The position numbers were made by a program, and so were the translations under genes. Below are positions 7,209-64,000 of a DNA stretch of 64,000 bases, one piece after another (position 1 is the first letter of the stretch; every line of letters starts with the position of its first letter). Source of the stretch: Eledone cirrhosa. Its lineage: Eukaryota. The notes beneath the pieces were generated by a model. That model was not told the DNA's origin and did no database searches. It saw nothing but the letters and a program-made list of their open reading frames with translations. The stretch is from positions 270,010,001 to 270,074,000 of the forward strand of contig OZ024741.1 of the NCBI GenBank assembly GCA_964016885.1, given 5' to 3'.

Positions 7209-7448
7209 TTTTTATTACTCCAAGATATACTTACATAGGAAAACAAGTGAAGTCATTTACTCATCACCCACGTAAACCTCTTGTTGAGTCACACAGCACC
7301 GTACGCTTAAACTATCCATCATAAGTAGGTTTCACAAACTCTTATCGGATTACCTTTAACGATATATTGTTACCCTCTCTCTCTCTCTATATATATATAT
7401 ATATTATGAAAATAAAACAAAGAAGCCTTCAATACATCAAAAGTATTT

Positions 7449-7493
7449 ATTAGCCAACAATGTTTCGTCCTATTAAGGACTCATCAGAGCAAT
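7449..7493 (-). ncRNA. Minimal type I hammerhead ribozyme (inverted arm)
   Basis: Minus strand attgct-CTGATGA-gtcct taat aggac-GAAA-c att g-TT-ggctaat. Confidence 0.8.
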
Positions 7494-8605
7494 CAAAACC
7501 ACAAGAAGCACTATCGGCCAATACAAGCCGAAAACTCCGAAGAATATGGAGTGTACATACACTAAAGTATTGGAAGATTATGGGTAAAAATATATAATAA
7601 AAATCACTAAGGAGGTGGATAACATTTTGAACCATATTACAAATATAGTCCAAAGCAAAAAAAAAAACTAGAGCTAAACAAAGGTGGTTATATAGAGCGG
7701 GAATTATAGTACTATATGTAATACAATATAATATAATATAATATACTTGTAACAATATTAAAATTAAAATTAAAAATTAAAAGGCACAATATACATATGT
7801 ATATATATACGCACACGTACGCACATATACATATACATCAATACACATTTCCATCATTAACAGCACAAATTAAACCTTATTATATAAGCATAATAGGAAT
7901 AAAAATAAAAATAATACATATATCTAATATACAGTATAACATGAAGTAATGAAATGATTAAAAGTAACATATATAATATATAATAAACTATATAATTATA
8001 TAATATATAATATAATATAATAGATAATCTCTGGTTAATTTACACAAACAATATAGATGTCACAATAAGACTATAATAATATTATAATAATATATAATAT
8101 ATAATGGCATGTAAGTTAACAAATCAATTCATATAGAGTTACAGAGTAGGTGAGAAAAAAAATATAAATTGTACAATACCCAAAATTATGATGGTACAAA
8201 AATATAAACATCTTACATGATATATAAAATTTAACATATAATGGTACATAAAATCATCGGTAAGTAATAAGGATCAATAGTACATTTACAAAGAGTTGAA
8301 TAACAACTTCAATATAAAATAATGAACATAATATAATATATAATTACTTATAATTACAAGGTTGGTAAACAGACACATATGTGAATGAGTGAATAAGGGC
8401 CAGACAGAAAATATTATGCACAGTAGTATTAATAAATAAATAAATAAATTCGACCGGAAATCAAAAAACAAAAACAAAAGTATTTACTTAGGTCTCACAT
8501 GCAGTTAAGTAAAAACTTAGGAAACAACTTAATGGAATTTCGGCTGATTCTAATAATGCGGTTTTAACTAATCCTTGAAGTAACCATAGTCTTAATAATG
8601 GGATA

Positions 8606-9433
8606 TTGGATAATGGTAGAGTCGGAAAGAATAAAAATAGAAGGAGACTAAATACTTATTTTAACCCGCCATATAATCAGGAAGTATTAACTAATATCCC
8701 TAGGTCTTTCTTTTCTATCTTAGAGAAAAATTTCCCCCCTTCTCATAAATATCATAGTATTTTTAATAAAAATGTTATTAAACTTTCATTCTCTACCACC
8801 CCTAATATTAGTTCTCATTTAGCTAGCACTAACAATAGGAAAATTAGGGATGGATACTCCTCTCTACATACTACTAGTCTGAACAGATCTGCAAATGCCT
8901 TACCACCAGAGCAGACCTTATCTAATAGTAATCCTACGTGTAATGCATCACTACTTCAGCCAATCAATAGCACCCGGAAGTGTAACTGTAGAGAGAGTGC
9001 TAACTGCCCTTTAAACGGTAACTGCCTCTCTAAGAACATCGTTTATGCTTGCGTAGTTATAACTAATTCCTCTAATAGAACTTATATAGGCTCTACATCT
9101 AACACTTTTAAGACTAGGTTTAATTCTCATATCTCTAATTTAAAACATGTTAAGTTTAAGAATTCTACTTCTTTAGCACACTATATCTGGGATCTTAAGG
9201 GGGCTAATATACCATATAGCCTTAATTGGCGCTTAGTAGCACGCTCTAATAACCTTTCTACACATACTAAATTTTGTAATCTCTGTATCCTCGAGACACA
9301 CTCTATAATTTTCTCTAGTGAATCCTTACTTAATAGAAAGTCTGAGATATTCTCTTCTTGCCCCCACGATATTTCTAATTCTTACTTTTATTATAAACCT
9401 AAAGGTTCTAGTAGTGTAAATTGTATCCATTAG
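8606..9433 (+). CDS. PLE C-terminal region with GIY-YIG endonuclease (5'-truncated)
   Basis: FNPPY, FPPSHKYHSIFN, CNCR..CPLNGNC, IVY..YIGST..FKTRFNSH, CNLC..E, LNRKSEI..CPH; homologous to 42273-42861. Confidence 0.9.
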   Translation: MDNGRVGKNKNRRRLNTYFNPPYNQEVLTNIPRSFFSILEKNFPPSHKYHSIFNKNVIKLSFSTTPNISSHLASTNNRKIRDGYSSLHTTSLNRSANALPPEQTLSNSNPTCNASLLQPINSTRKCNCRESANCPLNGNCLSKNIVYACVVITNSSNRTYIGSTSNTFKTRFNSHISNLKHVKFKNSTSLAHYIWDLKGANIPYSLNWRLVARSNNLSTHTKFCNLCILETHSIIFSSESLLNRKSEIFSSCPHDISNSYFYYKPKGSSSVNCIH

Positions 9434-11120
9434 CTGATATATTCCATTACTTATTTTTTTAGTTTAGGTTCTTTTTGTTTACCACCATTATTATCATCAT
9501 TAATATCATTGGTTTTTGACAACTTTTTATTCTAGCTCTCATAATCTTTTGGCTACTATACCATATCTATCTTCTTACACATTAAATGTTCACTATGAGT
9601 ATATTCACCTTATGAGTATATATCTGATTATATATTTTATATTATTTTATTTCATTTTATTTTATTTTATTTGGATTCTTCTTTGGATAACCCCCTCCCC
9701 ACCCTCCCCCCACCCCATGCACACATAAACTTATTGCTAACCTTTTCAAATATATTATGATTATATTTAATCACCCCTTTTTTATGCTCCTTTCTATTAT
9801 ATAATACAGTATATTGATTATGATTTTATGCTCCTTTGTATCCTTCATACATTTCTTTTTTTCTGTCCCTATTAGCCTACCATAATTCTGCTTAAGTCAG
9901 TTTTTTAGATATCGTTATGTAAATGATAGTAGAATATTTCATCCCTTTCTATATGTTTTTATAGTGAAATATTATTGTTTAGTGATTTTGATTACGTAAA
10001 CCATAGCTAATATTGTATTGCCTTATTAGGTATTTTAAATATGTTCAATATTAATTTATCAAATAGGGTTTTCTACTCATTTATCCGGGTTGTTTCCTAA
10101 GTTTTTACTTAACTGCATGTGAGACCTAAGTAAATACTTTTGTTTTTGTTTTTTGATTTCCGGTCGAATTTATTTATTTATTTATTAATACTACTGTGCA
10201 TAATATTTTCTGTCTGGCCCTTATTCACTCATTCACATATGTGTCTGTTTACCAACCTTGTAATTATAAGTAATTATATATTATATTATGTTCATTATTT
10301 TATATTGAAGTTGTTATTCAACTCTTTGTAAATGTACTATTGATCCTTATTACTTACCGATGATTTTATGTACCATTATATGTTAAATTGTATATATCAT
10401 GTAAGATGTTTATATTTTTGTACCATCATAATTTTGGGTATTGTACAATTTATATTTTTTTTCTCACCTACTCTGTAACTCTATATGAATTGATTTGTTA
10501 ACTTACATGCCATTATATATTATATATTATTATAATATTATTATAGTCTTATTGTGACATCTATATTGTTTGTGTAAATTAACCGGAGATTATCTATTAT
10601 ATTATATTATATATTATATAATTATATAGTTTATTATATATTATATATGTTACTTTTAATCATTTCATTACTTCATGTTATACTGTATATTAGATATATG
10701 TATTATTTTTAATTTTATTCCTATTATGCTTATATAATAAGGTTTAATTTGTGCTGTTAATGATGGAAATGTGTATTGATGTATATGTATATGTGCGTAC
10801 GTGTGCGTATATATATACATATGTATATTGTGCCTTTTAATTTTTAATTTTAATTTTAATAGTGTTACAAGTATATTATATTATATTATATTGTATTACA
10901 TATAGTACTATAATTCCCGCTCTATATAACTACCTTTGTTTAGCTCTAGTTTTTTTTGCTTTGGACTATATTTGTAATATGGTTCAAAATATTATCCACC
11001 TCCTTAGTGATTTTTATTATATATTTTTACCCAAAATCTTCCAATACTTTAGTGTATGTTCACTCCATATTCTTCGGAGTTTTCGGCTTGTATTGGCCGA
11101 TAGTGCTTCTTGTGGTTTTG

Positions 11121-11165
11121 ATTGCCCTGATGAGTCCTTAATAGGACGAAAAATTGTTGGCTAAT
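11121..11165 (+). ncRNA. Minimal type I hammerhead ribozyme in PLE pseudo-LTR
   Basis: gcc-CTGATGA-gtcct taat aggac-GAAA-a att g-TT-ggc; C>A in stem III relative to the inverted copy. Confidence 0.7.
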
Positions 11166-11206
11166 AAATACTTTTGATGTATTGAAGGCTTTTTTGTTTT
11201 ATTTTC

Positions 11207-11308
<102 letters not shown>

Positions 11309-36220: not shown

Positions 36221-36358
<138 letters not shown>

Positions 36359-36375
36359 ATATATGTATATATATA

Positions 36376-39207
36376 TATTAAGTGTAATGAATTCTTTTAC
36401 AATGAAATTAGCTCAAAGAAAGAAATATTTCTGAGCCGTGTAAAACATTTAAATATAAATTAATATATATGATGAAACACAAATACCAACATATCTGTAT
36501 TTATATTGCAAAAGAAAATTTAGTTAGCTAGAATGAAGTATACTAATTATAATATTACAGTCTGCCCATATCGATTTAAAATAATAAATCAACAAAGACA
36601 AACAGTATTGCCAAATGGCAATGATGTTTAGACACATTTAAATTTCAAAATCAAACATGTTCCGTAGATAAGTTTAAACTTTAAAATCCAAATATGTTAT
36701 TTCTAGTACTACGGTTATGAGGCTAGCTAGAAACTGTAAACCATGTGCGTTACACAGTCTTTTAAAATATTTGGAAGTGAAGCATATCAATTTGTTCCTG
36801 GATGTTTACTGAAGAGAGCAGGACATGATATCCTTACACTTTTTTATCTCGAAACATATTTGGATTTTAAAGTTTAAACTTATCTACGGAACAGGTTTGA
36901 TTTTGAAATTTAAATGTGTCTAAACATCATGGCCATTTGGCAATACTGTTTGTCTTTGTTGATTTATTATTTTAAATCGATATGGGCAGACTGTAATATT
37001 ATAATTAGTATACTTCATTCTAGCTAACTAAATTTTCTTTTGCAATATAAATACAGATATGTTGCTATTTGTGTTTCACCATATATATTAATTTATATTT
37101 AAATGTTTTACACGGCTCAGAAATATTTCTTTCTTTGAGCTAATTTCATTGTAAAAGAATTCATTACACTTAATATTATTGCTCCTTAGGTTGAGCTGAA
37201 AGTAGCCTCATATATACGGCTGTTATTTCTAGCAGTACGGTTATGAGGCCAGCTAGAAACTGTAAACAATGTGCGTTACACAGTCTTTTAAAATATTTGG
37301 AAGTGAAGCATATCAATTTGTTCCTGGATGTTTACTGAAGAGAGCAGGACATGATATCCTTACACTTTTTTATCTCGAAACATATTTGGATTTTAAAGTT
37401 TAAACTTATCTACGGAACAGGTTTGATTTTGAAATTTAAATGTGTCTAAACATCATGGCCATTTTGCAATACTGTTTGTCTTTGTTGATTTATTATTTTA
37501 AATCGATATGGGCAGACTGTAATATTATAATTAGTATACTTCATTCTAGCTAACTAAATTTTCTTTTGCAATATAAATACAGATATGTTGCTATTTGTGT
37601 TTCATCATATATATTAATTTATATTTAAATGTTTTACACGGCTCAGAAATATTTCTTTCTTTGAGCTAATTTCATTGTAAAAGAATTCATTACACTTAAT
37701 ATTATTGCTCCTTAGGTTGAGCTGAAAGTAGCCTCATATATACGGCTGTTATTTCTAGCAGTACGGTTATGAAGCCAGCTAGAAACTGTAAACAATGTGC
37801 GTTACACAGTCTTTTAAAATATTTGGAAGTGAAGCATATCAATTTGTTCCTGGATGTTTACTGAAGAGAGCAGGACATGATATCCTTACACTTTTTTATC
37901 TCGAAACATATTTGGATTTTAAAGTTTAAACTTATCTACGGAACAGGTTTGATTTTGAAATTTAAATGTGTCTAAACATCATGGCCATTTTGCAATACTG
38001 TTTGTCTTTGTTGATTTATTATTTTAAATCGATATGGGCAGACTGTAATATTATAATTAGTATACTTCATTCTAGCTAACTAAATTTTCTTTTGCAATAT
38101 AAATACAGATATGTTGCTATTTGTGTTTCATCATATATATTAATTTATATTTAAATGTTTTACACGGCTCAGAAATATTTCTTTCTTTGAGCTAATTTCA
38201 TTGTAAAAGAATTCATTACACTTAATATTATTGCTCCTTAGGTTGAGCTGAAAGTAGCCTCATATATACGGCTGTTATTTCTAGCAGTACGGTTATGAGG
38301 CCAGCTAGAAACTGTAAACAATGTGCGTTACACAGTCTTTTAAAATATTTGGAAGTGAAGCATATCAATTTGTTCCTGGATGTTTACTGAAGAGAGCAGG
38401 ACATGATATCCTTACACTTTTTTATCTCGAAACATATTTGGATTTTAAAGTTTAAACTTATCTACGGAACAGGTTTGATTTTGAAATTTAAATGTGTCTA
38501 AACATCATGGCCATTTGGCAATACTGTTTGTCTTTGTTGATTTATTATTTTTAATCGATATGGGCAGACTGTACTATTATAATTAGTATACTTCATTCTA
38601 GCTAACTAAATTTTCTTTTGCAATATAAATACAGATATGTTGCTATTTGTGTTTCATCATATATATTAATTTATATTTAAATGTTTTACACGGCTCAGAA
38701 ATATTTCTTTCTTTGAGCTAATTTCATTGTAAAAGAATTCATTACACTTAATATTATTGCTCCTTAGGTTGAGCTGAAAGTAGCCTCATATATACGGCTG
38801 TTATTTCTAGCAGTACGGTTATTAGGCTAGCTAGAAACTGTAAACCATGTGCGTTACACAGTCTTTTAAAATATTTGGAAGTGAAGCATATCAATTTGTT
38901 CCTGGATGTTTACTGAAGAGAGCAGGACATGATATCCTTACACTTTTTTATCTCGAAACATATTTGGATTTTAAAGTTTAAACTTATCTACAGAACAGGT
39001 TTGATTTTGAAATTTAAATGTGTCTAAACATCATGGCCATTTGGCAATACTGTTTGTCTTTGTTGATTTATTATTTTAAATCGATATGGGCAGACTGTAA
39101 TATTATAATTAGTATACTTCATTCTAGCTAACTAAAATTTCTTTTGCAATATAAATACAGATATGTTGGTATTTGAGTTTCATCATATATATTAATTTAT
39201 ATTTAAA
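36376..39207 (+). repeat. 526-bp tandem array (~4.8 copies) with inverted leading arm, flanked by (TA)n
   Basis: Unit start tgttatttctag at 36695, 37221, 37747, 38273, 38799; 36376-36698 is the reverse complement of 36853-37175. Confidence 0.95.
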
Positions 39208-39227
39208 TATATATATATATATAGATG

Positions 39228-40500
<1,273 letters not shown>

Positions 40501-49528: not shown

Positions 49529-49712
49529 GGGGCGGTGGATTGGCAGTATCGGTAGAGGGTCGGACACTATGCTTTGATAGAGTTACGCCCCTTGCCATTC
49601 TGAGTTTAAATCGCGCCAAGGTTAACTTTGCCTTTCATCCTTACGGGGTCGATAAAATAAAGTACCAGTAATGTACTGGGTAATTGCTGGCCTTGTGCCA
49701 AAAGTAGAAATA
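49529..49712 (+). mobile_element. tRNA-derived SINE family B (appears full length)
   Basis: ggggcggtggattggcagtatcggtag head, gagtttaaatc B-box-like motif, conserved core. Confidence 0.8.
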
Positions 49713-50505
49713 ATTATTTTTAATCCGGCCTCTAAACTAGTGTCTTTAATACGGCACTGATCCCTATTATTTTTAATCCGGCATCGAAACTAGTGTCTTT
49801 AATACGGGACTAATCCTTATTATTCTTAATCCAGCACTGACCTCTAGTTTCTTTAATCTAACGTTCATCCCTATTATATTTAATCCCTAGTATCATTAAT
49901 CTAGCACTGATCCCTATTACTTTTAATCCAACACCGAACCCTAGTGTTTTTAATCTGGCACTGGTCCCTATTATTTTGAATCTGACACTGACCTCTAGTT
50001 TCTTTAATCCGGCACTCATCCCTAGTGTCTTTAATTCGGCACTCAACTTAATATTTTTAATCCGGCACTGATCTCTAATGACTTTAATCCGGTACTGATC
50101 ACAAGTGTCTTTAATCTGGCAGTCATCCTTATTGCTTTTAATCCGGCACCCATTCTTCTTATTTTTAATCCGGTACTAATCCCTATTATTTTTCATCTGG
50201 CACATATCCTTGTTTTTAATCCGTCATTGATCTCTAACATATCCTTATCATTTTTAACCCGGCAGTCATCTGTTTGTATTTTTAATCCGGATCTCATCCT
50301 TATTATATTTAATCCGGCACTCATCCTAATTATTTTTAATCCGGCACTCATTACTAGTGTCTTTAATCCGGCATTCAACCTTATTTTTAATCTAGTGTCT
50401 TAATTCCGACACTCATCTTTATTATTTTTAATCCGGCACTCAGCCCTTTTATGTTTAATCCGGTACTCATCCTATTATTTTTAATCCGACGCTCATCCTT
50501 ATTTT
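49713..50505. repeat. Degenerate ~30-bp minisatellite
   Basis: Recurring tttaatccggcact(g/c)atcc followed by ctattat or ctagtgtc. Confidence 0.85.
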
Positions 50506-51680
50506 CAATCCCTAAACACCTGAAACCACCTAAACCCCTAATACTACGAAATCACCAAAAGCCTCGAAAGCCCCGAAACCGCCTAAACCCCCGAAACCGC
50601 TTAAATCCATGAAAAACCCTAAACCCGAAACATCTGACACCACCTAACCCAAGAAAACCCCTTAGCCCCTGAAACCACCAAAACTACCGAAACCCCCGAA
50701 ACCGTCGATACCCCCCCAAAACTCCTATACCTGCAAAAACCGCCTATACCCACCAGAAACACCCGAAAACCTCTAAACCGCCGAAGCCCTCCAAACCCCC
50801 GAAACCGCCTGAAACACCGAAACCCCCTAAACCTTCTAAACCCCGAAACCGCCTAAACCCCAAAAATCCCCTAAAACCCCGAAACTGCCTAATCCCAAGA
50901 AAACCCCTAAGACCCTGAAACCCCCTAAACCTCCTAAGCCCTCCAAAACGCCTAAACCCCGAAATCCCGAAACCACCTATATCCTTGAAACCCCCTAAAC
51001 CTCCTAAACCCCTGAAACCGCCTCAACCCTGAAACCGCCTAAATCCCAGAACCCCTTAATCTCCCGAAATCCCTGAAACGCACGAAACCGCCTAAAACCC
51101 TGAGACCCCCGAAACTGCCGAAACTCCCGACACCGCCAAAATCCCCGAAAATCCCGAAAACCCCCTAAATCTCCTAAACTCCCGCACCCACCTAAACCCA
51201 TGAAACAGCCTAAACTCCCGAATATCCCAAAAGACCCAAAACCACCGAAACCGCCTAAACCCCAGCAATCCCCTAAGGCCCCGAAACCGCCCAAACTCCC
51301 TACAACGCCAGGGTATTTGTTGGTTTAGGCGGTTTCAAGAACTAGGGGGTTTTCTGGGGTTAGGCCGTTTCGGAGGGTTCGGGGGTTTAGGCGGTTTCGG
51401 GTGTTTCAGGTTTATGGGTTTTCATAGGTTTAGGCTGTTTCAGTGGTTTCGGGTCTTTCAGCGGTTTATGCGGTTTTAGGGGTTTAGGACTTTTCTGTGG
51501 TTTAGACGTTTCGGGGATTTGGGAGACTTTGGGGTTTAGGGGGCTTCGGAATTTCGGTGGTTTAGGCGGTTTCAGGCTTTTTCAGCAGATTCAGAGCCTT
51601 AGGGAGTTTCGGGGGTTTGGGGTTTTCTGGGTTTTAGTGGTTTCGGGGTTTCAGGAGGTATAGAGGTTTTCGGGGGTTTC
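50506..51680. repeat. Degenerate ~9-bp repeat (CCCCGAAAC/CGCCTAAAC), C-rich then strand-flipped G-rich
   Basis: ccgaaaccgcctaaaccc units to ~51305; ggtttaggcggtttc units from ~51322. Confidence 0.85.
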
Positions 51681-51854
51681 ATCCATTAGAGATCGATATA
51701 AAAAGAACCAATCTAGTACTGGGGTCGATTGTTCCTCTATATCTCTTTCTCACTTCCATTCTCTCATTCTCTCTCTCCTTCTTTGGACGAATGCTGCTGT
51801 ATTCAAACCGGAAGAGGGGATAGTGTTCCGCTACGTTTTAAAATGCCCTAGAAA

Positions 51855-54800
51855 CACTGTATGTCAATACAGTGCCACTACGATTCCTTCAAGAGTTACC
51901 GGTCCTTGCCACAAAACACCGTATGTCAATTCAGTGCCACTACGTCTCCCTCGAGAGTTACGGGACCTTGCCATAAAACAGTGTATGTCAATACAGTGCC
52001 ACTACGACTCCCTCGAGAGTTACGGGACCTTGCCATAAAACAGTGTATGTCAATTCAGAGCCACTACGACTCCCTCGAGAGTTACGGGACATTGCCATAA
52101 AACAGTGTATGTCAATACAGTGTCACTACAACTCCCTCGAGAGTTACGGGACGTTGCCCCAAAACAGTGTATGTCAATACAGTGCCACTACGACTCCCTC
52201 GAGAGTTACGGGACATTGCCATAAAACAGTGTATGTCAATACAGTGCCACTACGACTCCCTCGAGAGTTACGGGACAATGCCACAAAACACCGTATGTCA
52301 ATACAGTGCCACTACAACTCCCTCGAGAGTGACGGGACATTGCCATAAAACAGTGTATGTCAATACAGTGCCACTACGACTCCCTCGAGAGTTACGGGAC
52401 AATGCCACAAAACACCGTATGTCAATACAGTGCCACTACGACTCCCTCGAGAGTTACGGGACATTGCCCCAACACACCGTATGTCAATACAGTGCCACTA
52501 CGACTCCCTCGAGAGTTACGGGACCTTGCCATAAAACAGTGTATGTCAATACAGTGCCACTACGACACCCTCAAGAGTTACGGGACATTGCCACAAAACA
52601 CCGTATGTCAATACAGTGCCACTACGACTCCCTCGAGAGTTACGGGACAATGCCACAAAACACCGTATGTCAATACAGTGCCACTACGACTCCCTCGAGA
52701 GTTACGGGACCTTGCCATAAAACAGTGTATGTCAATACAGTGCCACTACGACTCCCTCGAGAGTTACGGGACATTGCCATAAAACAGTGTATGTCAATTC
52801 AGTGCCACTACGACTCCCTCGAGAGTTACGGGACCTTGCCCCAAAACAGTGTATGTCAATACAGTGTCACTACGACTCCCTCGAGAGTTACGGGACAATG
52901 CCACAAAACACCGTATGTCAATACAGTGCCACTACAACTCCCTCGAGAGTGACGGGACATTGCCATAAAACAGTGTATGTCAATACAGTGCCACTACGAC
53001 TCCCTCGAGAGTTACGGGACAATGCCACAAAACACCGTATGTCAATACAGTGCCACTACGACTCCCTCGAGAGTTACGGGACATTGCCCCAACACACCGT
53101 ATGTCAATACAGTGCCACTACGACTCCCTCGAGAGTTACGGGACCTTGCCATAAAACAGTGTATGTCAATACAGTGCCACTACGACACCCTCAAGTGTTA
53201 CGGGACATTGCCACAAAACACCGTATGTCAATACAGTGCCACTACGACTCCCTCGAGAGTTACGGGACAATGCCACAAAACACCTATGTCAATACAGTGC
53301 CACTACGACTCCCCCGAGAGTTACGGGACCTTGCCATAAAACAGTGTATGTCAATACAGTGCCACTACGACTCCCTCGAGAGTTACGGGACATTGCCATA
53401 AAACAGTGTATGTCAATTCAGTGCCACTACGACTCCCTCGAGAGTTACGGGACCTTGCCATAAAACAGTGTATGTCAATACAGTGCCACTACGACTCCCT
53501 CGAGAGTTACGGGACCTTGCCATAAAACAGTGTATGTCAATACAGTGCCACTACGACTCCCTCGAGAGTTACGGGACAATGCCACAAAACACCGTATGTC
53601 AATACAGTGCCACTACGACTCCCTCGAGAGTTACGGGACATTGCCATAAAACAGTGTATGTCAATTCAGTGCCACTACGACTCCCTCGAGAGTTACGGGA
53701 CCTTGCCATAAAACAGTGTATGTCAATACAGTGCCACTACAAACTCCCTCGAGAGTTACGGGACAATGCCACAAAACACCGTATGTCAATACAGTGCCAC
53801 TACGACTCCCTCGAGAGTTACGGGACATTGCCATAAAACAGTGTATGTCAATTCAGTGCCACTACGACTCCCTCGAGAGTTACGGGACCTTGCCATAAAA
53901 CAGTGTATGTCAATACAGTGCCACTACGACTCCCTCGAGAGTTACGGGACCTTGCCATAAAACAGTGTATGTCAATACAGTGCCACTACGACTCCCTCGA
54001 GTGTTACGGGACATTGCCATAAAACAGTGTATGTCAATACAGTGCCACTACGACTCCCTCGAGAGTTACGGGACATTGCCATAAAACAGTGTATGTCAAT
54101 ACAGTGCCACTACGACTCCCTCGAGAGTTACGGGACCTTGCCATAAAACAGTGTATGTCAATACAGTGCCACTACGACACCCTCAAGAGTTACGGGACAT
54201 TGCCACAAAACACCGTATGTCAATACAGTGCCACTACGACTCCCTCGAGAGTTACGGGACAATGCCACAAAACACCGTATGTCAATACAGTGCCACTACG
54301 ACTCCCTCGAGAGTTACGGGACCTTGCCATAAAACAGTGTATGTCAATACAGTGCCACTACGACTCCCTCGAGAGTTACGGGACATTGCCATAAAACAGT
54401 GTATGTCAATTCAGTGCCACTACGACTCCCTCGAGAGTTACGGGACCTTGCCCCAAAACAGTGTATGTCAATACAGTGTCACTACGACTCCCTCGAGAGT
54501 TACGGGACAATGCCACAAAACACCGTATGTCAATACAGTGCCACTACAACTCCCTCGAGAGTGACGGGACATTGCCATAAAACAGTGTATGTCAATACAG
54601 TGCCACTACGACTCCCTCGAGAGTTACGGGACAATGCCACAAAACACCGTATGTCAATACAGTGCCACTACGACTCCCTCGAGAGTTACGGGACATTGCC
54701 CCAACACACCGTATGTCAATACAGTGCCACTACGACTCCCTCGAGAGTTACGGGACCTTGCCATAAAACAGTGTATGTCAATACAGTGCCACTACGACAC

Positions 54801-57800
54801 CCTCAAGAGTTACGGGACATTGCCACAAAACACCGTATGTCAATACAGTGCCACTACGACTCCCTCGAGAGTTACGGGACAATGCCACAAAACACCTATG
54901 TCAATACAGTGCCACTACGACTCCCTCGAGAGTTACGGGACCTTGCCATAAAACAGTGTATGTCAATACAGTGCCACTACGACTCCCTCGAGAGTTACGG
55001 GACATTGCCATAAAACAGTGTATGTCAATTCAGTGCCACTACGACTCCCTCGAGAGTTACGGGACCTTGCCATAAAACAGTGTATGTCAATACAGTGCCA
55101 CTACGACTCCCTCGAGAGTTACGGGACATTGCCACAAAACACCGTATGTCAATACAGTGCCACTACGACACCCTCAAGTGTTACGGGACATTGCCACAAA
55201 ACACCGTATGTCAATACAGTGCCACTACGACTCCCTCGAGAGTTACGGGACAATGCCACAAAACACCTATGTCAATACAGTGCCACTACGACTCCCCCGA
55301 GAGTTACGGGACCTTGCCATAAAACAGTGTATGTCAATACAGTGCCACTACGACTCCCTCGAGAGTTACGGGACATTGCCATAAAACAGTGTATGTCAAT
55401 TCAGTGCCACTACGACTCCCTCGAGAGTTACGGGACCTTGCCATAAAACAGTGTATGTCAATACAGTGCCACTACGACTCCCTCGAGAGTTACGGGACCT
55501 TGCCATAAAACAGTGTATGTCAATACAGTGCCACTACGACTCCCTCGAGAGTTACGGGACAATGCCACAAAACACCGTATGTCAATACAGTGCCACTACG
55601 ACTCCCTCGAGAGTTACGGGACATTGCCATAAAACAGTGTATGTCAATTCAGTGCCACTACGACTCCCTCGAGAGTTACGGGACCTTGCCATAAAACAGT
55701 GTATGTCAATACAGTGCCACTACAAACTCCCTCGAGAGTTACGGGACAATGCCACAAAACACCGTATGTCAATACAGTGCCACTACGACTCCCTCGAGAG
55801 TTACGGGACATTGCCATAAAACAGTGTATGTCAATTCAGTGCCACTACGACTCCCTCGAGAGTTACGGGACCTTGCCATAAAACAGTGTATGTCAATACA
55901 GTGCCACTACGACTCCCTCGAGAGTTACGGGACCTTGCCATAAAACAGTGTATGTCAATACAGTGCCACTACGACTCCCTCGAGTGTTACGGGACATTGC
56001 CATAAAACAGTGTATGTCAATACAGTGCCACTACGACTCCCTCGAGAGTTACGGGACATTGCCATAAAACAGTGTATGTCAATACAGTGCCACTACGACT
56101 CCCTCGAGAGTTACGGGACCTTGCCATAAAACAGTGTATGTCAATACAGTGCCACTACGACACCCTCAAGAGTTACGGGACATTGCCACAAAACACCGTA
56201 TGTCAATACAGTGCCACTACGACTCCCTCGAGAGTTACGGGACAATGCCACAAAACACCGTATGTCAATACAGTGCCACTACGACACCCTCAAGAGTTAC
56301 GGGACATTGCCACAAAACACCGTATGTCAATACAGTGCCACTACGACTCCCTCGAGAGTTACGGGACAATGCCACAAAACACCTATGTCAATACAGTGCC
56401 ACTACGACTCCCTCGAGAGTTACGGGACCTTGCCATAAAACAGTGTATGTCAATACAGTGCCACTACGACTCCCTCGAGAGTTACGGGACATTGCCATAA
56501 AACAGTGTATGTCAATTCAGTGCCACTACGACTCCCTCGAGAGTTACGGGACCTTGCCATAAAACAGTGTATGTCAATACAGTGCCACTACGACTCCCTC
56601 GAGAGTTACGGGGCATTGCCACAAAACACCGTATGTCAATACAGTGCCACTACGACTCCCTCGAGAGTTACGGGACCTTGCCATAAAACAGTGTATGTCA
56701 ATACAGTGCCACTACGACTCCCTCGAGAGTTACGGGACAATGCCACAAAACACCGTATGTCAATACAGTGCGACTACGACTCCCTCGAGAGTTACGGGAC
56801 ATTGCCATAAAACAGTGTATGTCAATTCAGTGCCACTACGACTCCCTCGAGAGTTACGGGACCTTGCCATAAAACAGTGTATGTCAATACAGTGCCACTA
56901 CAAACTCCCTCGAGAGTTACGGGACAATGCCACAAAACACCGTATGTCAATACAGTGCCACTACGACTCCCTCGAGAGTTACGGGACATTGCCATAAAAC
57001 AGTGTATGTCAATTCAGTGCCACTACGACTCCCTCGAGAGTTACGGGACCTTGCCATAAAACAGTGTATGTCAATACAGTGCCACTACGACTCCCTCGAG
57101 AGTTACGGGACCTTGCCATAAAACAGTGTATGTCAATACAGTGCCACTACGACTCCCTCGAGTGTTACGGGACATTGCCATAAAACAGTGTATGTCAATA
57201 CAGTGCCACTACGACACCCTCAAGAGTTACGGGACATTGCCACAAAACACCGTATGTCAATACAGTGCCACTACGACTCCCTCGAGAGTTACGGGACAAT
57301 GCCACAAAACACCGTATGTCAATACAGTGCCACTACGACTCCCTCGAGAGTTACGGGACCTTGCCATAAAACAGTGTATGTCAATACAGTGCCACTACGA
57401 CTCCCTCGAGAGTTACGGGACATTGCCATAAAACAGTGTATGTCAATTCAGTGCCACTACGACTCCCTCGAGAGTTACGGGACCTTGCCCCAAAACAGTG
57501 TATGTCAATACAGTGTCACTACGACTCCCTCGAGAGTTACGGGACAATGCCACAAAACACCGTATGTCAATACAGTGCCACTACAACTCCCTCGAGAGTG
57601 ACGGGACATTGCCATAAAACAGTGTATGTCAATACAGTGCCACTACGACTCCCTCGAGAGTTACTGGACAATGCCACAAAACACCGTATGTCAATACAGT
57701 GCCACTACGACTCCCTCGAGAGTTACGGGACATTGCCCCAACACACCGTATGTCAATACAGTGCCACTACGACTCCCTCGAGAGTTACGGGACCTTGCCA

Positions 57801-60800
57801 TAAAACAGTGTATGTCAATACAGTGCCACTACGACACCCTCAAGAGTTACGGGACATTGCCACAAAACACCGTATGTCAATACAGTGCCACTACGACTCC
57901 CTCGAGAGTTACGGGACAATGCCACAAAACACCTATGTCAATACAGTGCCACTACGACTCCCTCGAGAGTTACGGGACCTTGCCATAAAACAGTGTATGT
58001 CAATACAGTGCCACTACGACTCCCTCGAGAGTTACGGGACATTGCCATAAAACAGTGTATGTCAATTCAGTGCCACTACGACTCCCTCGAGAGTTACGGG
58101 ACCTTGCCATAAAACAGTGTATGTCAATACAGTGCCACTACGACTCCCTCGAGAGTTACGGGACCTTGCCATAAAACAGTGTATGTCAATACAGTGCCAC
58201 TACGACTCCCTCGAGAGTTACGGGACAATGCCACAAAACACCGTATGTCAATACAGTGCCACTACGACTCCCTCGAGAGTTACGGGACATTGCCATAAAA
58301 CAGTGTATGTCAATTCAGTGCCACTACGACTCCCTCGAGAGTTACGGGACCTTGCCATAAAACAGTGTATGTCAATACAGTGCCACTACAAACTCCCTCG
58401 AGAGTTACGGGACAATGCCACAAAACACCGTATGTCAATACAGTGCCACTACGACTCCCTCGAGAGTTACGGGACATTGCCATAAAACAGTGTATGTCAA
58501 TTCAGTGCCACTACGACTCCCTCGAGAGTTACGGGACCTTGCCATAAAACAGTGTATGTCAATACAGTGCCACTACGACTCCCTCGAGAGTTACGGGACC
58601 TTGCCATAAAACAGTGTATGTCAATACAGTGCCACTACGACTCCCTCGAGTGTTACGGGACATTGCCATAAAACAGTGTATGTCAATACAGTGCCACTAC
58701 GACTCCCTCGAGAGTTACGGGACATTGCCATAAAACAGTGTATGTCAATACAGTGCCACTACGACTCCCTCGAGAGTTACGGGACCTTGCCATAAAACAG
58801 TGTATGTCAATACAGTGCCACTACGACACCCTCAAGAGTTACGGGACATTGCCACAAAACACCGTATGTCAATACAGTGCCACTACGACTCCCTCGAGAG
58901 TTACGGGACAATGCCACAAAACACCGTATGTCAATACAGTGCCACTACGACTCCCTCGAGAGTTACGGGACCTTGCCATAAAACAGTGTATGTCAATACA
59001 GTGCCACTACGACTCCCTCGAGAGTTACGGGACATTGCCATAAAACAGTGTATGTCAATTCAGTGCCACTACGACTCCCTCGAGAGTTACGGGACCTTGC
59101 CCCAAAACAGTGTATGTCAATACAGTGTCACTACGACTCCCTCGAGAGTTACGGGACAATGCCACAAAACACCGTATGTCAATACAGTGCCACTACAACT
59201 CCCTCGAGAGTGACGGGACATTGCCATAAAACAGTGTATGTCAATACAGTGCCACTACGACTCCCTCGAGAGTTACGGGACAATGCCACAAAACACCGTA
59301 TGTCAATACAGTGCCACTACGACTCCCTCGAGAGTTACGGGACATTGCCCCAACACACCGTATGTCAATACAGTGCCACTACGACTCCCTCGAGAGTTAC
59401 GGGACCTTGCCATAAAACAGTGTATGTCAATACAGTGCCACTACGACACCCTCAAGAGTTACGGGACATTGCCACAAAACACCGTATGTCAATACAGTGC
59501 CACTACGACTCCCTCGAGAGTTACGGGACAATGCCACAAAACACCTATGTCAATACAGTGCCACTACGACTCCCTCGAGAGTTACGGGACCTTGCCATAA
59601 AACAGTGTATGTCAATACAGTGCCACTACGACTCCCTCGAGAGTTACGGGACATTGCCATAAAACAGTGTATGTCAATTCAGTGCCACTACGACTCCCTT
59701 GAGAGTTACGGGACCTTGCCATAAAACAGTGTATGTCAATACAGTGCCACTACGACTCCCTCGAGAGTTACGGGACATTGCCACAAAACACCGTATGTCA
59801 ATACAGTGCCACTACGACTCCCTCGAGAGTTACGGGACCTTGCCATAAAACAGTGTATGTCAATACAGTGCCACTACGACTCCCTCGAGAGTTACGGGAC
59901 AATGCCACAAAACACCGTATGTCAATACAGTGCCACTACGACTCCCTCGAGAGTTACGGGACATTGCCATAAAACAGTGTATGTCAATTCAGTGCCACTA
60001 CGACTCCCTCGAGAGTTACGGGACCTTGCCATAAAACAGTGTATGTCAATACAGTGCCTCTACAAACTCCCTCGAGAGTTACGGGACAATGCCACAAAAC
60101 ACCGTATGTCAATACAGTGCCACTACGACTCCCTCGAGAGTTACGGGACATTGCCATAAAACAGTGTATGTCAATTCAGTGCCACTACGACTCCCTCGAG
60201 AGTTACGGGACCTTGCCATAAAACAGTGTATGTCAATACAGTGCCACTACGACTCCCTCGAGAGTTACGGGACCTTGCCATAAAACAGTGTATGTCAATA
60301 CAGTGCCACTACGACTCCCTCGAGTGTTACGGGACATTGCCATAAAACAGTGTATGTCAATACAGTGCCACTACGACTCCCTCGAGAGTTACGGGACATT
60401 GCCATAAAACAGTGTATGTCAATACAGTGCCACTATGACTCCCTCGAGAGTTACGGGACCTTGCCATAAAACAGTGTATGTCAATACAGTGCCACTACGA
60501 CTCCCTCGAGAGTTACGGGACATTGCCATAAAACAGTGTATGTCAATACAGTGCCACTACGACTCCCTCGAGAGTTACGGGACATTGCCATAAAACAGTG
60601 TATGTCAATACAGTGCCACTACGACTCCCTCGAGAGTTACGGGACCTTGCCATAAAACAGTGTATGTCAATACAGTGCCACTACGACTCCCTCGAGTGTT
60701 ACGGGACATTGCCATAAAACAGTGTATGTCAATACAGTGCCACTACGACTCCCTCGAGAGTTACGGGACCTTGCCATAAAACAGTGTATGTCAATACAGT

Positions 60801-63800
60801 GCCACTACGACTCCCTCGAGAGTTACGGGACATTGCCATAAAACAGTGTATGTCAATACAGTGCCACTACGACTCCCTCGAGAGTTACGGGACCTTGCCA
60901 TAAAACAGTGTATGTCAATACAGTGCCACTACGACTCCCTCGAGAGTTACGGGACCTTGCCATAAAACAGTGTATGTCAATACAGTGCCACTACGACTCC
61001 CTCGAGAGTTACGGGACCTTGCCACAAAACAGTGTATGTCATTACAGTGCCACTACGACTCCCTCGAGAGTTACGGGACATTGCCCCAAAACAGTGTATG
61101 TCAATACAGTGCCACTACGACTCCCTCGAGAGTTACAGGACATTGCCCCAAAACAGTGTATGTCAATACAGTGCCACTACGACTTCCTCGAGAGTTACGG
61201 AACATTGCCATAAAACAGTGTATGTCAATACAGTGCCACTACGACTCCCTCGAGAGTTACGGGACATTGCCCCAAAACAGTGTATGTCAATACAGTGCCA
61301 CTACAACTCCCTCGAGAGTTACGGGACATTGCCCCAAAACAGTGTATGTCAATACAGTGCCACTACGACTTCCTCGAGAGTTACGGGACATTGCCCCAAA
61401 ACAGTGTATGTCAATACAGTGCCACTACGACTTCCTCGAGAGTTACGGGACATTGCCATAAAACAGTGTATGTCAATACAGTGCCACTACGACTCCCTCG
61501 AGAGTTACAGGACATTGCCCCAAAACAGTGTATGTCAATACAGTGCCACTACGACTCCCTCGAGAGTTACGGGACATTGCCCCAAAACAGTGTATGTCAA
61601 TACAGTGTCACTACGACTCCCTCGAGAGTTACGGGACCTTGTCATGAAACAGTGTATGTCAATACAGTGTCACTACGACTCCCTCGAGAGTTACGGGACC
61701 TTGTCATGAAACAGTGTATGTCAATACAGTGCCACTACGACTCCCTCGAGAGTTACGGGACATTGCCCCAAAACAGTGTATGTCAATACAGTGCCACTAC
61801 GACTCCCTCGAGAGTTACGGGACCTTGCCATAAAACAGTGTATGTCAATACAGTGTCACTACGACTCCCTCGAGAGTTACGGGACCTTGCCATAAAACAG
61901 TGTATGTCAATACAGTGCCACTACGACTCCCTCGAGAGTTACGGGACCTTGCCCCAAAACAGTGTATGTCAATTCAGTGCCACTACGACTCCCTCGAGAG
62001 TTACGGGACATTGCCTCAAAACAGTGTATGTCAATACAGTGCCACTACGACTCCCTCGAGAGTTACGGGACCTTGCCATAAAACAGTGTATGTCAATACA
62101 GTGTCACTACGACTCCCTCGAGAGTTACGGGACATTGCCATAAAACAGTGTATGTCAATTCAGTGCCACTACGACTCCCTCGAGAGTTACGGGACATTGC
62201 CACAAAACAGTGTATGTCAATACAGTGCCACTACGACTCCCTCGAGAGTTACGGGACCTTGCCATAAAACAGTGCATGTCAATACAGTGCCACTACGACT
62301 CCCTCGAGAGTTACGGGACATTGCCATAAAACAGTGTATGTCAATACAGTGCCACTACGACTCCCTCGAGAGTTACGGGACATTGTCACAAAACACCGTA
62401 TGTCAATACAGTGCCACTACGACTCCCTCGTGATTTACGGGACATTGCCACAAAACACCGTATGTCAATACAGTGCCACTACGACTCCCTCGAGAGTTAC
62501 GGGACATTGCCCCAACACACCGTATGTCAATACAGTGTCACTACGACTCCCTCGAGAGTTACGGGACCTTGCCATAAAACAGTGTATGTCAATACAGTGC
62601 CACTACGACTCCCTCGAGAGTTACGGGACCTTGCCCCAAAACAGTGTATGTCAATTCAGTGCCACTACGACTCCCTCGAGAGTTACGGGACATTGCCTCA
62701 AAACAGTGTATGTCAATACAGTGCCACTACGACTCCCTCGAGAGTTACGGGACCTTGCCATAAAACAGTGTATGTCAATACAGTGCCACTACGACTCCCT
62801 CGAGAGTTACGGGACCTTGCCATAAAACAGTGTATGTCAATACAGTGCCACTACGACTCCCTCGAGAGTTACGGGACAATGCCACAAAACACCGTATGTC
62901 AATACAGTGCCACTACGACTCCCTCGAGAGTTACGGGACATTGCCATAAAACAGTGTATGTCAATTCAGTGCCACTACGACTCCCTCGAGAGTTACGGGA
63001 CCTTGCCATAAAACAGTGTATGTCAATACAGTGCCACTACAAACTCCCTCGAGAGTTACGGGACAATGCCACAAAACACCGTATGTCAATACAGTGCCAC
63101 TACGACTCCCTCGAGAGTTACGGGACATTGCCATAAAACAGTGTATGTCAATTCAGTGCCACTACGACTCCCTCGAGAGTTACGGGACCTTGCCATAAAA
63201 CAGTGTATGTCAATACAGTGCCACTACGACTCCCTCGAGAGTTACGGGACCTTGCCATAAAACAGTGTATGTCAATACAGTGCCACTACGACTCCCTCGA
63301 GTGTTACGGGACATTGCCATAAAACAGTGTATGTCAATACAGTGCCACTACGACTCCCTCGAGAGTTACGGGACATTGCCATAAAACAGTGTATGTCAAT
63401 ACAGTGCCACTACGACTCCCTCGAGAGTTACGGGACCTTGCCATAAAACAGTGTATGTCAATACAGTGCCACTACGACACCCTCAAGAGTTACGGGACAT
63501 TGCCACAAAACACCGTATGTCAATACAGTGCCACTACGACTCCCTCGAGAGTTACGGGACAATGCCACAAAACACCGTATGTCAATACAGTGCCACTACG
63601 ACTCCCTCGAGAGTTACGGGACCTTGCCATAAAACAGTGTATGTCAATACAGTGCCACTACGACTCCCTCGAGAGTTACGGGACATTGCCATAAAACAGT
63701 GTATGTCAATTCAGTGCCACTACGACTCCCTCGAGAGTTACGGGACCTTGCCCCAAAACAGTGTATGTCAATACAGTGTCACTACGACTCCCTCGAGAGT

Positions 63801-64000
63801 TACGGGACAATGCCACAAAACACCGTATGTCAATACAGTGCCACTACAACTCCCTCGAGAGTGACGGGACATTGCCATAAAACAGTGTATGTCAATACAG
63901 TGCCACTACGACTCCCTCGAGAGTTACGGGACAATGCCACAAAACACCGTATGTCAATACAGTGCCACTACGACTCCCTCGAGAGTTACGGGACATTGCC
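51855..64000. repeat. 62-bp satellite array (~196 monomers, continues past the window) with higher-order repeats
   Basis: Consensus GTATGTCAATACAGTGCCACTACGACTCCCTCGAGAGTTACGGGAC(A/C)TTGCCATAAAACAGT; rare 61- and 63-bp variants recur in conserved order. Confidence 0.98.

Follow-up and report, generated by a model that had tools for sequence, protein, structure and literature searches.

Metazoan non-LTR retrozymes (Cervera and de la Pena 2020, PMC7229834; Li, Clavereau and Pollet 2026, bioRxiv 10.64898/2026.07.22.740005) are described as tandem repeats that are non-coding and low in GC and carry a type I hammerhead in every unit; they are found as scattered monomers and dimers and in a few long arrays, and co-occurring PLEs are their proposed helpers. 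Their monomers measure 170-400 nt in the first of these accounts and 51-972 bp in the second, helix III has 1-2 bp, and the link with PLEs rests, in the accessible portions of the two texts, on co-occurrence and pLTR similarity. The second account also proposes local growth by duplication for retrozyme satellites.

PLE insertions themselves (Frangieh et al. 2024, PMC11167929; Craig et al. 2021, PMC8557442) comprise partial tandems, an inverted 5'-truncated copy and a tail on one side only (PMC8557442); they have two start sites 3' of the hammerhead, require the RNA 3' of these sites and use AT-rich targets. The tail, of 30-40 nt, represents the gap separating two internal RT starts, which in the anole element lie in an AC-rich stem loop; in vitro, the ribozyme of that element was dispensable and uncut RNA was its main template (PMC11167929). 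Minimal, dimer-dependent PLE hammerheads (Cervera and de la Pena 2014, PMC4209133) are of type I and display U3-A8 covariation, and a large helix III is given there for PLEs of fungi and protists but not of animals. Non-autonomous Chlamys elements such as MRC1 (PMC8557442) are PLE clients with pLTRs and head-to-tail copies, but they come from green algae and mostly lack hammerheads.

Here we describe a tandem array in a window of 64,000 nucleotides of Eledone cirrhosa DNA, which maps to contig C2 of a 3.0-Gb genome. We interpret it, with a probability of roughly 0.7, as a non-LTR retrozyme whose RNA is reverse-transcribed into (TA)n runs by a Hydra-type PLE protein likely recognising two GCUC…GAGCU hairpins. 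Apart from size and helix III, the retrozyme traits listed above recur here, with a GC content of 29%, under the 45% retrozyme ceiling, as do the tandem, inversion, tail, start-site and target traits of PLE insertions. The 526-nt monomer exceeds the first published size range and lies inside the second, and helix III, at 29 bp, is large. The tail also exceeds the published 30-40 nt (66-72 nt here, and 92-106 nt in the Hydra-type families of the same genome), and each start is placed immediately 5' of one of two similar hairpins rather than in an AC-rich stem loop. Unlike PLEs, the unit has no ORF, and its hammerhead is located 190 nt upstream of the first end site. By every feature that can be tested on its sequence the element is a metazoan non-LTR retrozyme, cleavage and circles being predicted. 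This class is already known; the element departs from it in its size, its long helix III and its traceable PLE start signal. The PLE link is based here on fixed start sites, tails and a shared hairpin signal, which do not figure in the accessible parts of the published retrozyme accounts, and the open-access literature yielded no account of twin start hairpins or of a Hydra-clade helper. The finding bears on the identity of the enzyme that mobilises animal retrozymes and on the signal recognised by it.

The array and its hammerhead

The direct array (36695-39208) consists of 4.78 units of 526 bp that are 98-100% identical to one another and can be told apart by point differences. It is abutted by an inverted arm of 324 bp with 99% identity, and 4 bp are common to the arm and the direct part at the inversion joint. 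With unit position 1 set at 37177, the arm runs from position 526 to 203 and the direct part from 45 to 454 (Table 1). TA runs are present on either side, and the longest stop-free stretches over three units are 47 (+) and 51 (-) codons. These measurements bear out the preliminary description, which had reported about 4.8 near-identical 526-bp units between TA flanks, an inverted leading piece of about 320 bp and the absence of an ORF. The fold of the predicted 526-nt monomer has a z-score of -5.37, and none of 100 shuffles was as stable. An early idea that the unit might be an intron (CAG/GT … AG) was dropped.

Table 1. Positions of the array, its flanks and its predicted RNA elements in the window.
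Feature	Coordinates	Strand	Remark
(TA)n run, left flank, target microsatellite	36225..36374	.	
Inverted 5'-truncated arm, unit positions 203-526	36375..36698	-	outer end at fixed end/start site 2 (526)
TGTT microhomology, inversion joint	36695..36698	.	
Unit 1, positions 45-526, 5'-truncated	36695..37176	+	
Type I hammerhead copy 1, core CUGAAGA at 36809-36815	36801..36928	+	predicted cut after 36920
Units 2-4, complete	37177..38754	+	putative local duplicates (locus-private alleles)
Second fold, 3' of hairpin 2: conserved helices without a hammerhead	37196..37284	+	
Hammerhead copy 2	37327..37454	+	predicted cut after 37446
526-nt monomer between two predicted cuts, one of four	37447..37972	+	predicted
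'Tail' between end site 1 (460) and end site 2 (526), 66 nt	37637..37702	+	
Hairpin 1, GGCUC…GAGCU, unit positions 464-491	37640..37667	+	also at 37114, 38166, 38692
Hairpin 2, GCUC…GGUUGAGCU, unit positions 5-21	37707..37723	+	also at 37181, 38233, 38759
Hammerhead copy 3	37853..37980	+	predicted cut after 37972
Hammerhead copy 4	38379..38506	+	predicted cut after 38498
Unit 5, positions 1-454	38755..39208	+	end at fixed end/start site 1
Hammerhead copy 5	38905..39032	+	predicted cut after 39024
(TA)n then (AG)n, right flank	39209..39313	.	

Using a fixed descriptor, we found one type I hammerhead with a canonical core in each of the five units. In the first copy, an 8-bp stem I formed by GATGTTTA (36801-36808) and TAAACATC (36921-36928) encloses CUGAAGA, stem II (GAG/CUC, 3 bp with an irregular extension), GAAA, stem III and GUC, with C17 at 36920. 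Stem III comprises 63 nt and 29 bp and is capped by a C(UACG)G loop. The motif thereby contains CUGANGA, GAAA and NUH, stems I to III and the pairs G10.1-C11.1 and C3-G8, and its fold has a z-score of -4.03, with 0 of 200 shuffles equally stable. The preliminary description had placed a hammerhead at this core, which stands in 5/5 units, and had assigned to it a weak stem I and a short stem III with a C-A mismatch, both of which give way to the 8-bp and 29-bp stems of the full fold (36801-36928). This fold first became evident from a sister family, B (see below). The dimensions of helix III rule out a minimal dimer-type PLE hammerhead, in which helix III is very short and palindromic. No match was obtained with Rfam at gathering score over the whole window, and at E<=10 the region 36300-37800 gave chance matches only and no hammerhead. 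The long helix III is presumably why Rfam misses the ribozyme of this unit and others like it, and presumably also why they escape short-helix descriptors.

In a comparison of other copies, of the kind that the preliminary description had suggested as a check of the core, the descriptor was passed by 31/39 loci of family A, to which the window array belongs, 19/25 of family C and, with U4A allowed, 14/29 of family B. CUGAAGA is present in 34/39 and GUC in 38/39 family-A loci. In 26 of 29 copies of family B (L081-L109), U4 is changed to A, giving the core CAGAAGA, though the family is widespread; this is either a natural core variant or the mark of a dead ribozyme that nonetheless spread.

An alignment of 52 sequences restricted to families A and C (the window copy, 26 of the 39 A loci and 25 C loci) showed pairing in 95% of cells, compared with 19-52% when the partners were slid. 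Changes on both sides affect 5/8 pairs of stem I, 2/3 of stem II and the 3-8 core pair, which shifts from C3-G8 in family A to U3-A8 in family C, the covariation also known from minimal PLE hammerheads. Neither the pairing score nor the covariation score was reached by any of 500 shuffles, and the count of doubly changed pairs by 30/500. The covariation goes back to about three lineages rather than to a large number of separate changes. In family C, pairing fails at stem III pairs 68/69 and 93, leaving three positions unpaired.

A second hammerhead per unit, as claimed in the preliminary description, did not withstand this comparison: none of 64 family segments has a canonical core at that place, and CUGA and GAAA are missing in families B and C. 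Helices are present in the region, some of them covarying, and it might possibly represent a protein-binding region. Within it, a CATA(T/A)A(T/A)A stretch at unit positions 31-38 (37207-37214) is kept in families A, B and C and in one PLE family described below (F3), and is a candidate TATA-like promoter or RNA motif.

A dispersed family with two fixed ends

A genome search with the unit yielded 94 matches among the best 39 of 2280 candidates. An exact 16-mer from the hammerhead core has 149 genome copies (control, 2), an exact pattern just 3' of the cut site 318, and an exact hairpin-1 pattern 1491, sister families included. We located the element at 87 sites in addition to the window locus and the long arrays, in different phases and from monomers to multimers; 47 of these were collected by similarity-ranked searches, which are biased to long copies, and 40 by patterns in position order. 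Two sister families, B (unit of ~497 bp, 67% like family A) and C (~552 bp, 71%), are also tandem and non-coding. The same family as in the window forms a 50-unit array (G000:C2:383780251-383806599; L063-L065) with an exact whole number of units, in which shared variants come back every 2-3 units. A second, more diverged satellite array (L252; G000:C2:407495000-407504999), with a 522-bp unit 84% like that of the window, has at least 19 units and fills the 10 kb examined. Independent sequencing runs contain the family with many variants. A dispersed non-coding family with one hammerhead per unit supports the retrozyme type, as first suggested.

At the 87 sites, 129 of 137 arms end at one of two places whose windows make up 8% of the unit: site 1 at positions 445-464, mostly 454-460, and site 2 at 526, or 510 where an older subfamily has an insertion. 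The two sites stand 66-72 nt apart, and 125 of the 129 arms abut a TA run, so that the expected copies with TA flanks in other phases and copy numbers do exist. The fixed 3' ends read TTTA/AATAT against the TA runs, and their positions are blurred by TA microhomology; the 5' ends are scattered. Joints between inverted copies combine one site-1 and one site-2 end in 41/48 cases and never like with like, some other end being involved in the remaining 7. The window array conforms to this rule, its arm stopping at site 2 and its direct part at site 1. PLE-type reverse transcription, as the preliminary description had proposed, is supported by the two fixed 3' ends, the truncation at the 5' side, the inversions with the tail to one side and the (TA)n targets. 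Helitron-type rolling-circle DNA elements have fixed 5' TC and 3' CTRR ends, and the scattered 5' ends and TTTA/AATAT 3' ends do not fit an element of that type.

In families A, B and C, each end site lies 4-6 nt 5' of a GCUC…GAGCU hairpin; in the window unit, hairpin 1 begins 4 nt 3' of site 1 (460) and hairpin 2 begins 4 nt 3' of site 2. This motif occurs exactly twice per unit, and one was present in 7 of 2000 shuffles. Elsewhere in the window, GCTC…GAGC hairpins precede TA runs by 50-70 nt at 2119, 6224 and 19021, which suggests more clients of the same helpers. Another locus (L180:1450-1750) carries a different hammerhead element, the upstream hairpin of which is weakly like unit positions 42-60 (E 0.02-0.05).

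Hydra-type PLE families as candidate helpers

A scan of the retrieved loci for hairpin 1 picked out an element (in L176) that, in its long copies, is an autonomous PLE with a frame of 844 codons, and a protein search added three more PLE families at 66-71%, which brings the Hydra-type families to at least four (L353-L405). These families include many uninterrupted frames of 800-900 codons, and a first look at the genome gave 26377 candidates, far beyond the 'small number' of families reported in 2021 (PMC8557442). One Hydra-type ORF spans L354:3259-5790, and family F3 is represented in L390. The near-intact ORFs encode 829-897 residues with a C-terminal EN and were not recognised by Pfam. Among six of them, RWR (not RWK) was found in 5, DKT in 5, CxCX5C in 6, CxxC..E in 4 and CxH in 5; LYRDDA was also seen. 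The motif set matches the Hydra clade as portrayed in PMC8557442 (C-terminal EN, RWR, DKT, CxCX5C, CxxC, CxH, hammerhead and (TA)n targets), an assignment made by motifs rather than by a tree.

At the pLTR-ORF junction of these PLEs, the order is minimal hammerhead, hairpin 1, 92-106 nt, hairpin 2 and ORF start. Among 48 ORF starts found in 51 loci of the four families, 38 are preceded by both hairpins and 8 by one, and both hairpins occur in 3 of 5000 control windows taken at loci that belong to other clades. For the first family, hairpin 1 does not count as independent evidence, because that family was selected by a scan for it; the remaining features were not chosen in this way. Terminal copies end 2-7 nt before each hairpin, few such copies being available for families F2-F4. 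The site-2 region of the retrozyme aligns best, over ~45 nt, to family F3, a result equalled by 1-2 of 300 shuffles, versus 8, 9 and 49 of 300 for the three other families. The likeness is confined to the two hairpins and these ~45 nt, the hammerhead being of a different build, and a profile of retrozyme families A-C found no match at E<=1 in 20 Hydra-type loci. On this sequence evidence the likeness is one of motif and not demonstrated descent. In family F2, the hammerhead core is of the UUGA(U/A)AA type.

The unit itself is not an autonomous PLE, as it has no ORF for RT and GIY-YIG between pLTRs, and an early idea of a GIY-YIG remnant in it was dropped (best E of 0.06 in a tblastn of PLE ORFs against the units). 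No autonomous element carrying the 526-bp unit was found in the 30 best GIY-YIG and 20 long-frame loci of 150 scored, nor in 43 core-containing and 30 hairpin-1 loci, and 50 GIY-YIG loci contained only separate retrozyme insertions.

Template, growth of the array and competing explanations

None of 137 5' ends falls within positions 266-276, where the cut site lies, and among the first 30 of the 318 matches just 3' of the cut, the sequence runs through the cut site in all 30. As no sampled copy stops there, the cut linear monomer was not the template of these copies, and as the cut site is read through, the template must be a circle or an uncleaved multimer. Insertions contain more than one unit at 47 of the 87 sites, the longest amounting to 2.34 units with long arrays set aside. 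Within insertions, the median divergence is 2.0% for 44 tandem pairs and 1.9% for 57 inverted pairs, versus 6% with other loci, and private variants gave 19 observations shared within a locus as against 210 unshared; at L019 and L030, identical private variants are found in both tandem units and the arm. Such sharing fits one monomer read repeatedly, i.e., a circle. A homogeneous uncleaved multimer or later conversion is another potential source of it.

The preliminary description had attributed the 4.8 units to several turns round a circle, which is not supported, because units 2-4 share mutations that other loci lack. C74 and A92 are common to these three units and are found elsewhere in 0/44 and 0/45 segments, respectively, and in 0/50 units of the long array; T289 occurs in units 2-3 and C415 in units 1-4, and unit 5 and the arm retain the family alleles. 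Because successive turns round one circle would not share private alleles in this way, units 2-4 are ascribed to local duplication. The original insertion was probably of ~1.8 units plus the arm, as at L019 and L030, and later grew locally to 4.8.

We therefore propose the following scenario. Transcription of a locus with at least two hammerheads would yield an RNA predicted to be cut by monomeric hammerheads after GUC into 526-nt pieces, which a host ligase would close into circles by analogy with coral, mussel and axolotl retrozymes. A Hydra-type RT-EN dimer would bind the two hairpins, nick (TA)n and prime on one or both strands; the ends seen 4-6 nt 5' of hairpin 1 or 2 would mark where reverse transcription starts inside the RNA. 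The cDNA is observed to pass the cleavage site, often beyond one full unit. Use of both starts, one per target strand, would join two cDNAs head to head and give the observed inverted arm with a tail on one side only. In the window, local duplication would then have enlarged the ~1.8-unit insertion and its arm to the present array. That this dispersed non-coding element is a retrozyme moved by a PLE seems very probable; that the helper is a Hydra-type PLE is suggested by the shared junction features, and we hold it with good confidence. The element is likely a parasitic RNA that spreads with a Hydra-type PLE enzyme. We lean slightly towards a more specific view, in which the twin hairpins would set both RT starts of the Hydra clade, one per subunit and target strand, and the retrozyme circle would hijack the protein with little beyond these hairpins and a hammerhead active as a monomer. 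If true, this would identify the enzyme that helps an animal retrozyme to move and the signal it recognises, and would jointly explain the PLE tail and inversion.

The same element and PLE enzyme could also use an uncleaved read-through multimer transcribed from a tandem locus, in which case the hammerhead would act at another step and no circle would be needed. Read-through of the cut site is equally expected from such a template, the lack of insertions above 2.34 units outside satellite arrays agrees with it, the anole PLE mainly used unprocessed RNA (PMC11167929), and family B spread despite its U4A core. We nonetheless consider it unlikely, since a hammerhead with a stable stem III and covarying stems should cut co-transcriptionally, and the private variants of successive units and arm at L019 and L030 fit one monomer read repeatedly. 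That the copies might be truncated pseudo-LTRs of an autonomous PLE that escaped detection is compatible with every insertion mark, each being a PLE mark, and with the way loci were chosen, as the best-scoring candidates of each search and the first places for each pattern. Against it, the 43 core loci taken in position order stay in unit phase upstream of the core until they are truncated at scattered points and do not recurrently pass into other sequence there, all three sister families are tandem and non-coding, and only separate insertions are present in the 50 GIY-YIG loci, which leaves this explanation very little room.

We attach similarly slight weight to mobilisation of the retrozyme by another retroelement, either a different PLE clade or a LINE. 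The genome is rich in other PLE clades (10595 GIY-YIG candidates), the resemblance to Hydra-type junctions covers a short stretch, and LINE twin priming is known to produce inversions. Twin priming, however, generates a variable internal end, whereas a second fixed end is used here once per insertion (41/48); a poly(A) tail is absent, and the twin hairpins are rare (3/5000 windows) in loci of other clades. That the array is a local satellite or an assembly artefact in which hammerhead-like words arose by chance is barely conceivable: the five units of the window did expand locally, and the 50-unit and >=19-unit arrays exist elsewhere, but the 87 further sites in various phases, the distinct point differences between units, the covarying ribozyme and the many variants in independent sequencing runs refute it for the family.

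With the retrozyme read as the client of a Hydra-type PLE, one genome brings together three families of the client and nearly intact helper ORFs, along with a two-hairpin motif common to both and precisely predicted start sites. The helper link, the choice between circle and multimer, and the origin of the PLE tail can therefore be assayed together in vitro.

The window contains further repeats. Next to the array, a further small element at 39315-39745 combines a minimal hammerhead, whose core lies at 39643 and whose stem III is palindromic, with an inverted arm at ~39400-39490, and type I hammerhead motifs are found in other repeats at 2031, 15896 (-), 27754 (-)/28319 and 34493. A PLE fragment at 7388-11226 with a GIY-YIG domain (8579-9430, E 2e-4) is bordered on both sides by long inverted arms. 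A 62-bp satellite of 196 copies occupies 51844-64000, preceded at 49700-51700 by 27-bp and 9/18-bp minisatellites, the latter arranged as inverted C-rich/G-rich blocks.
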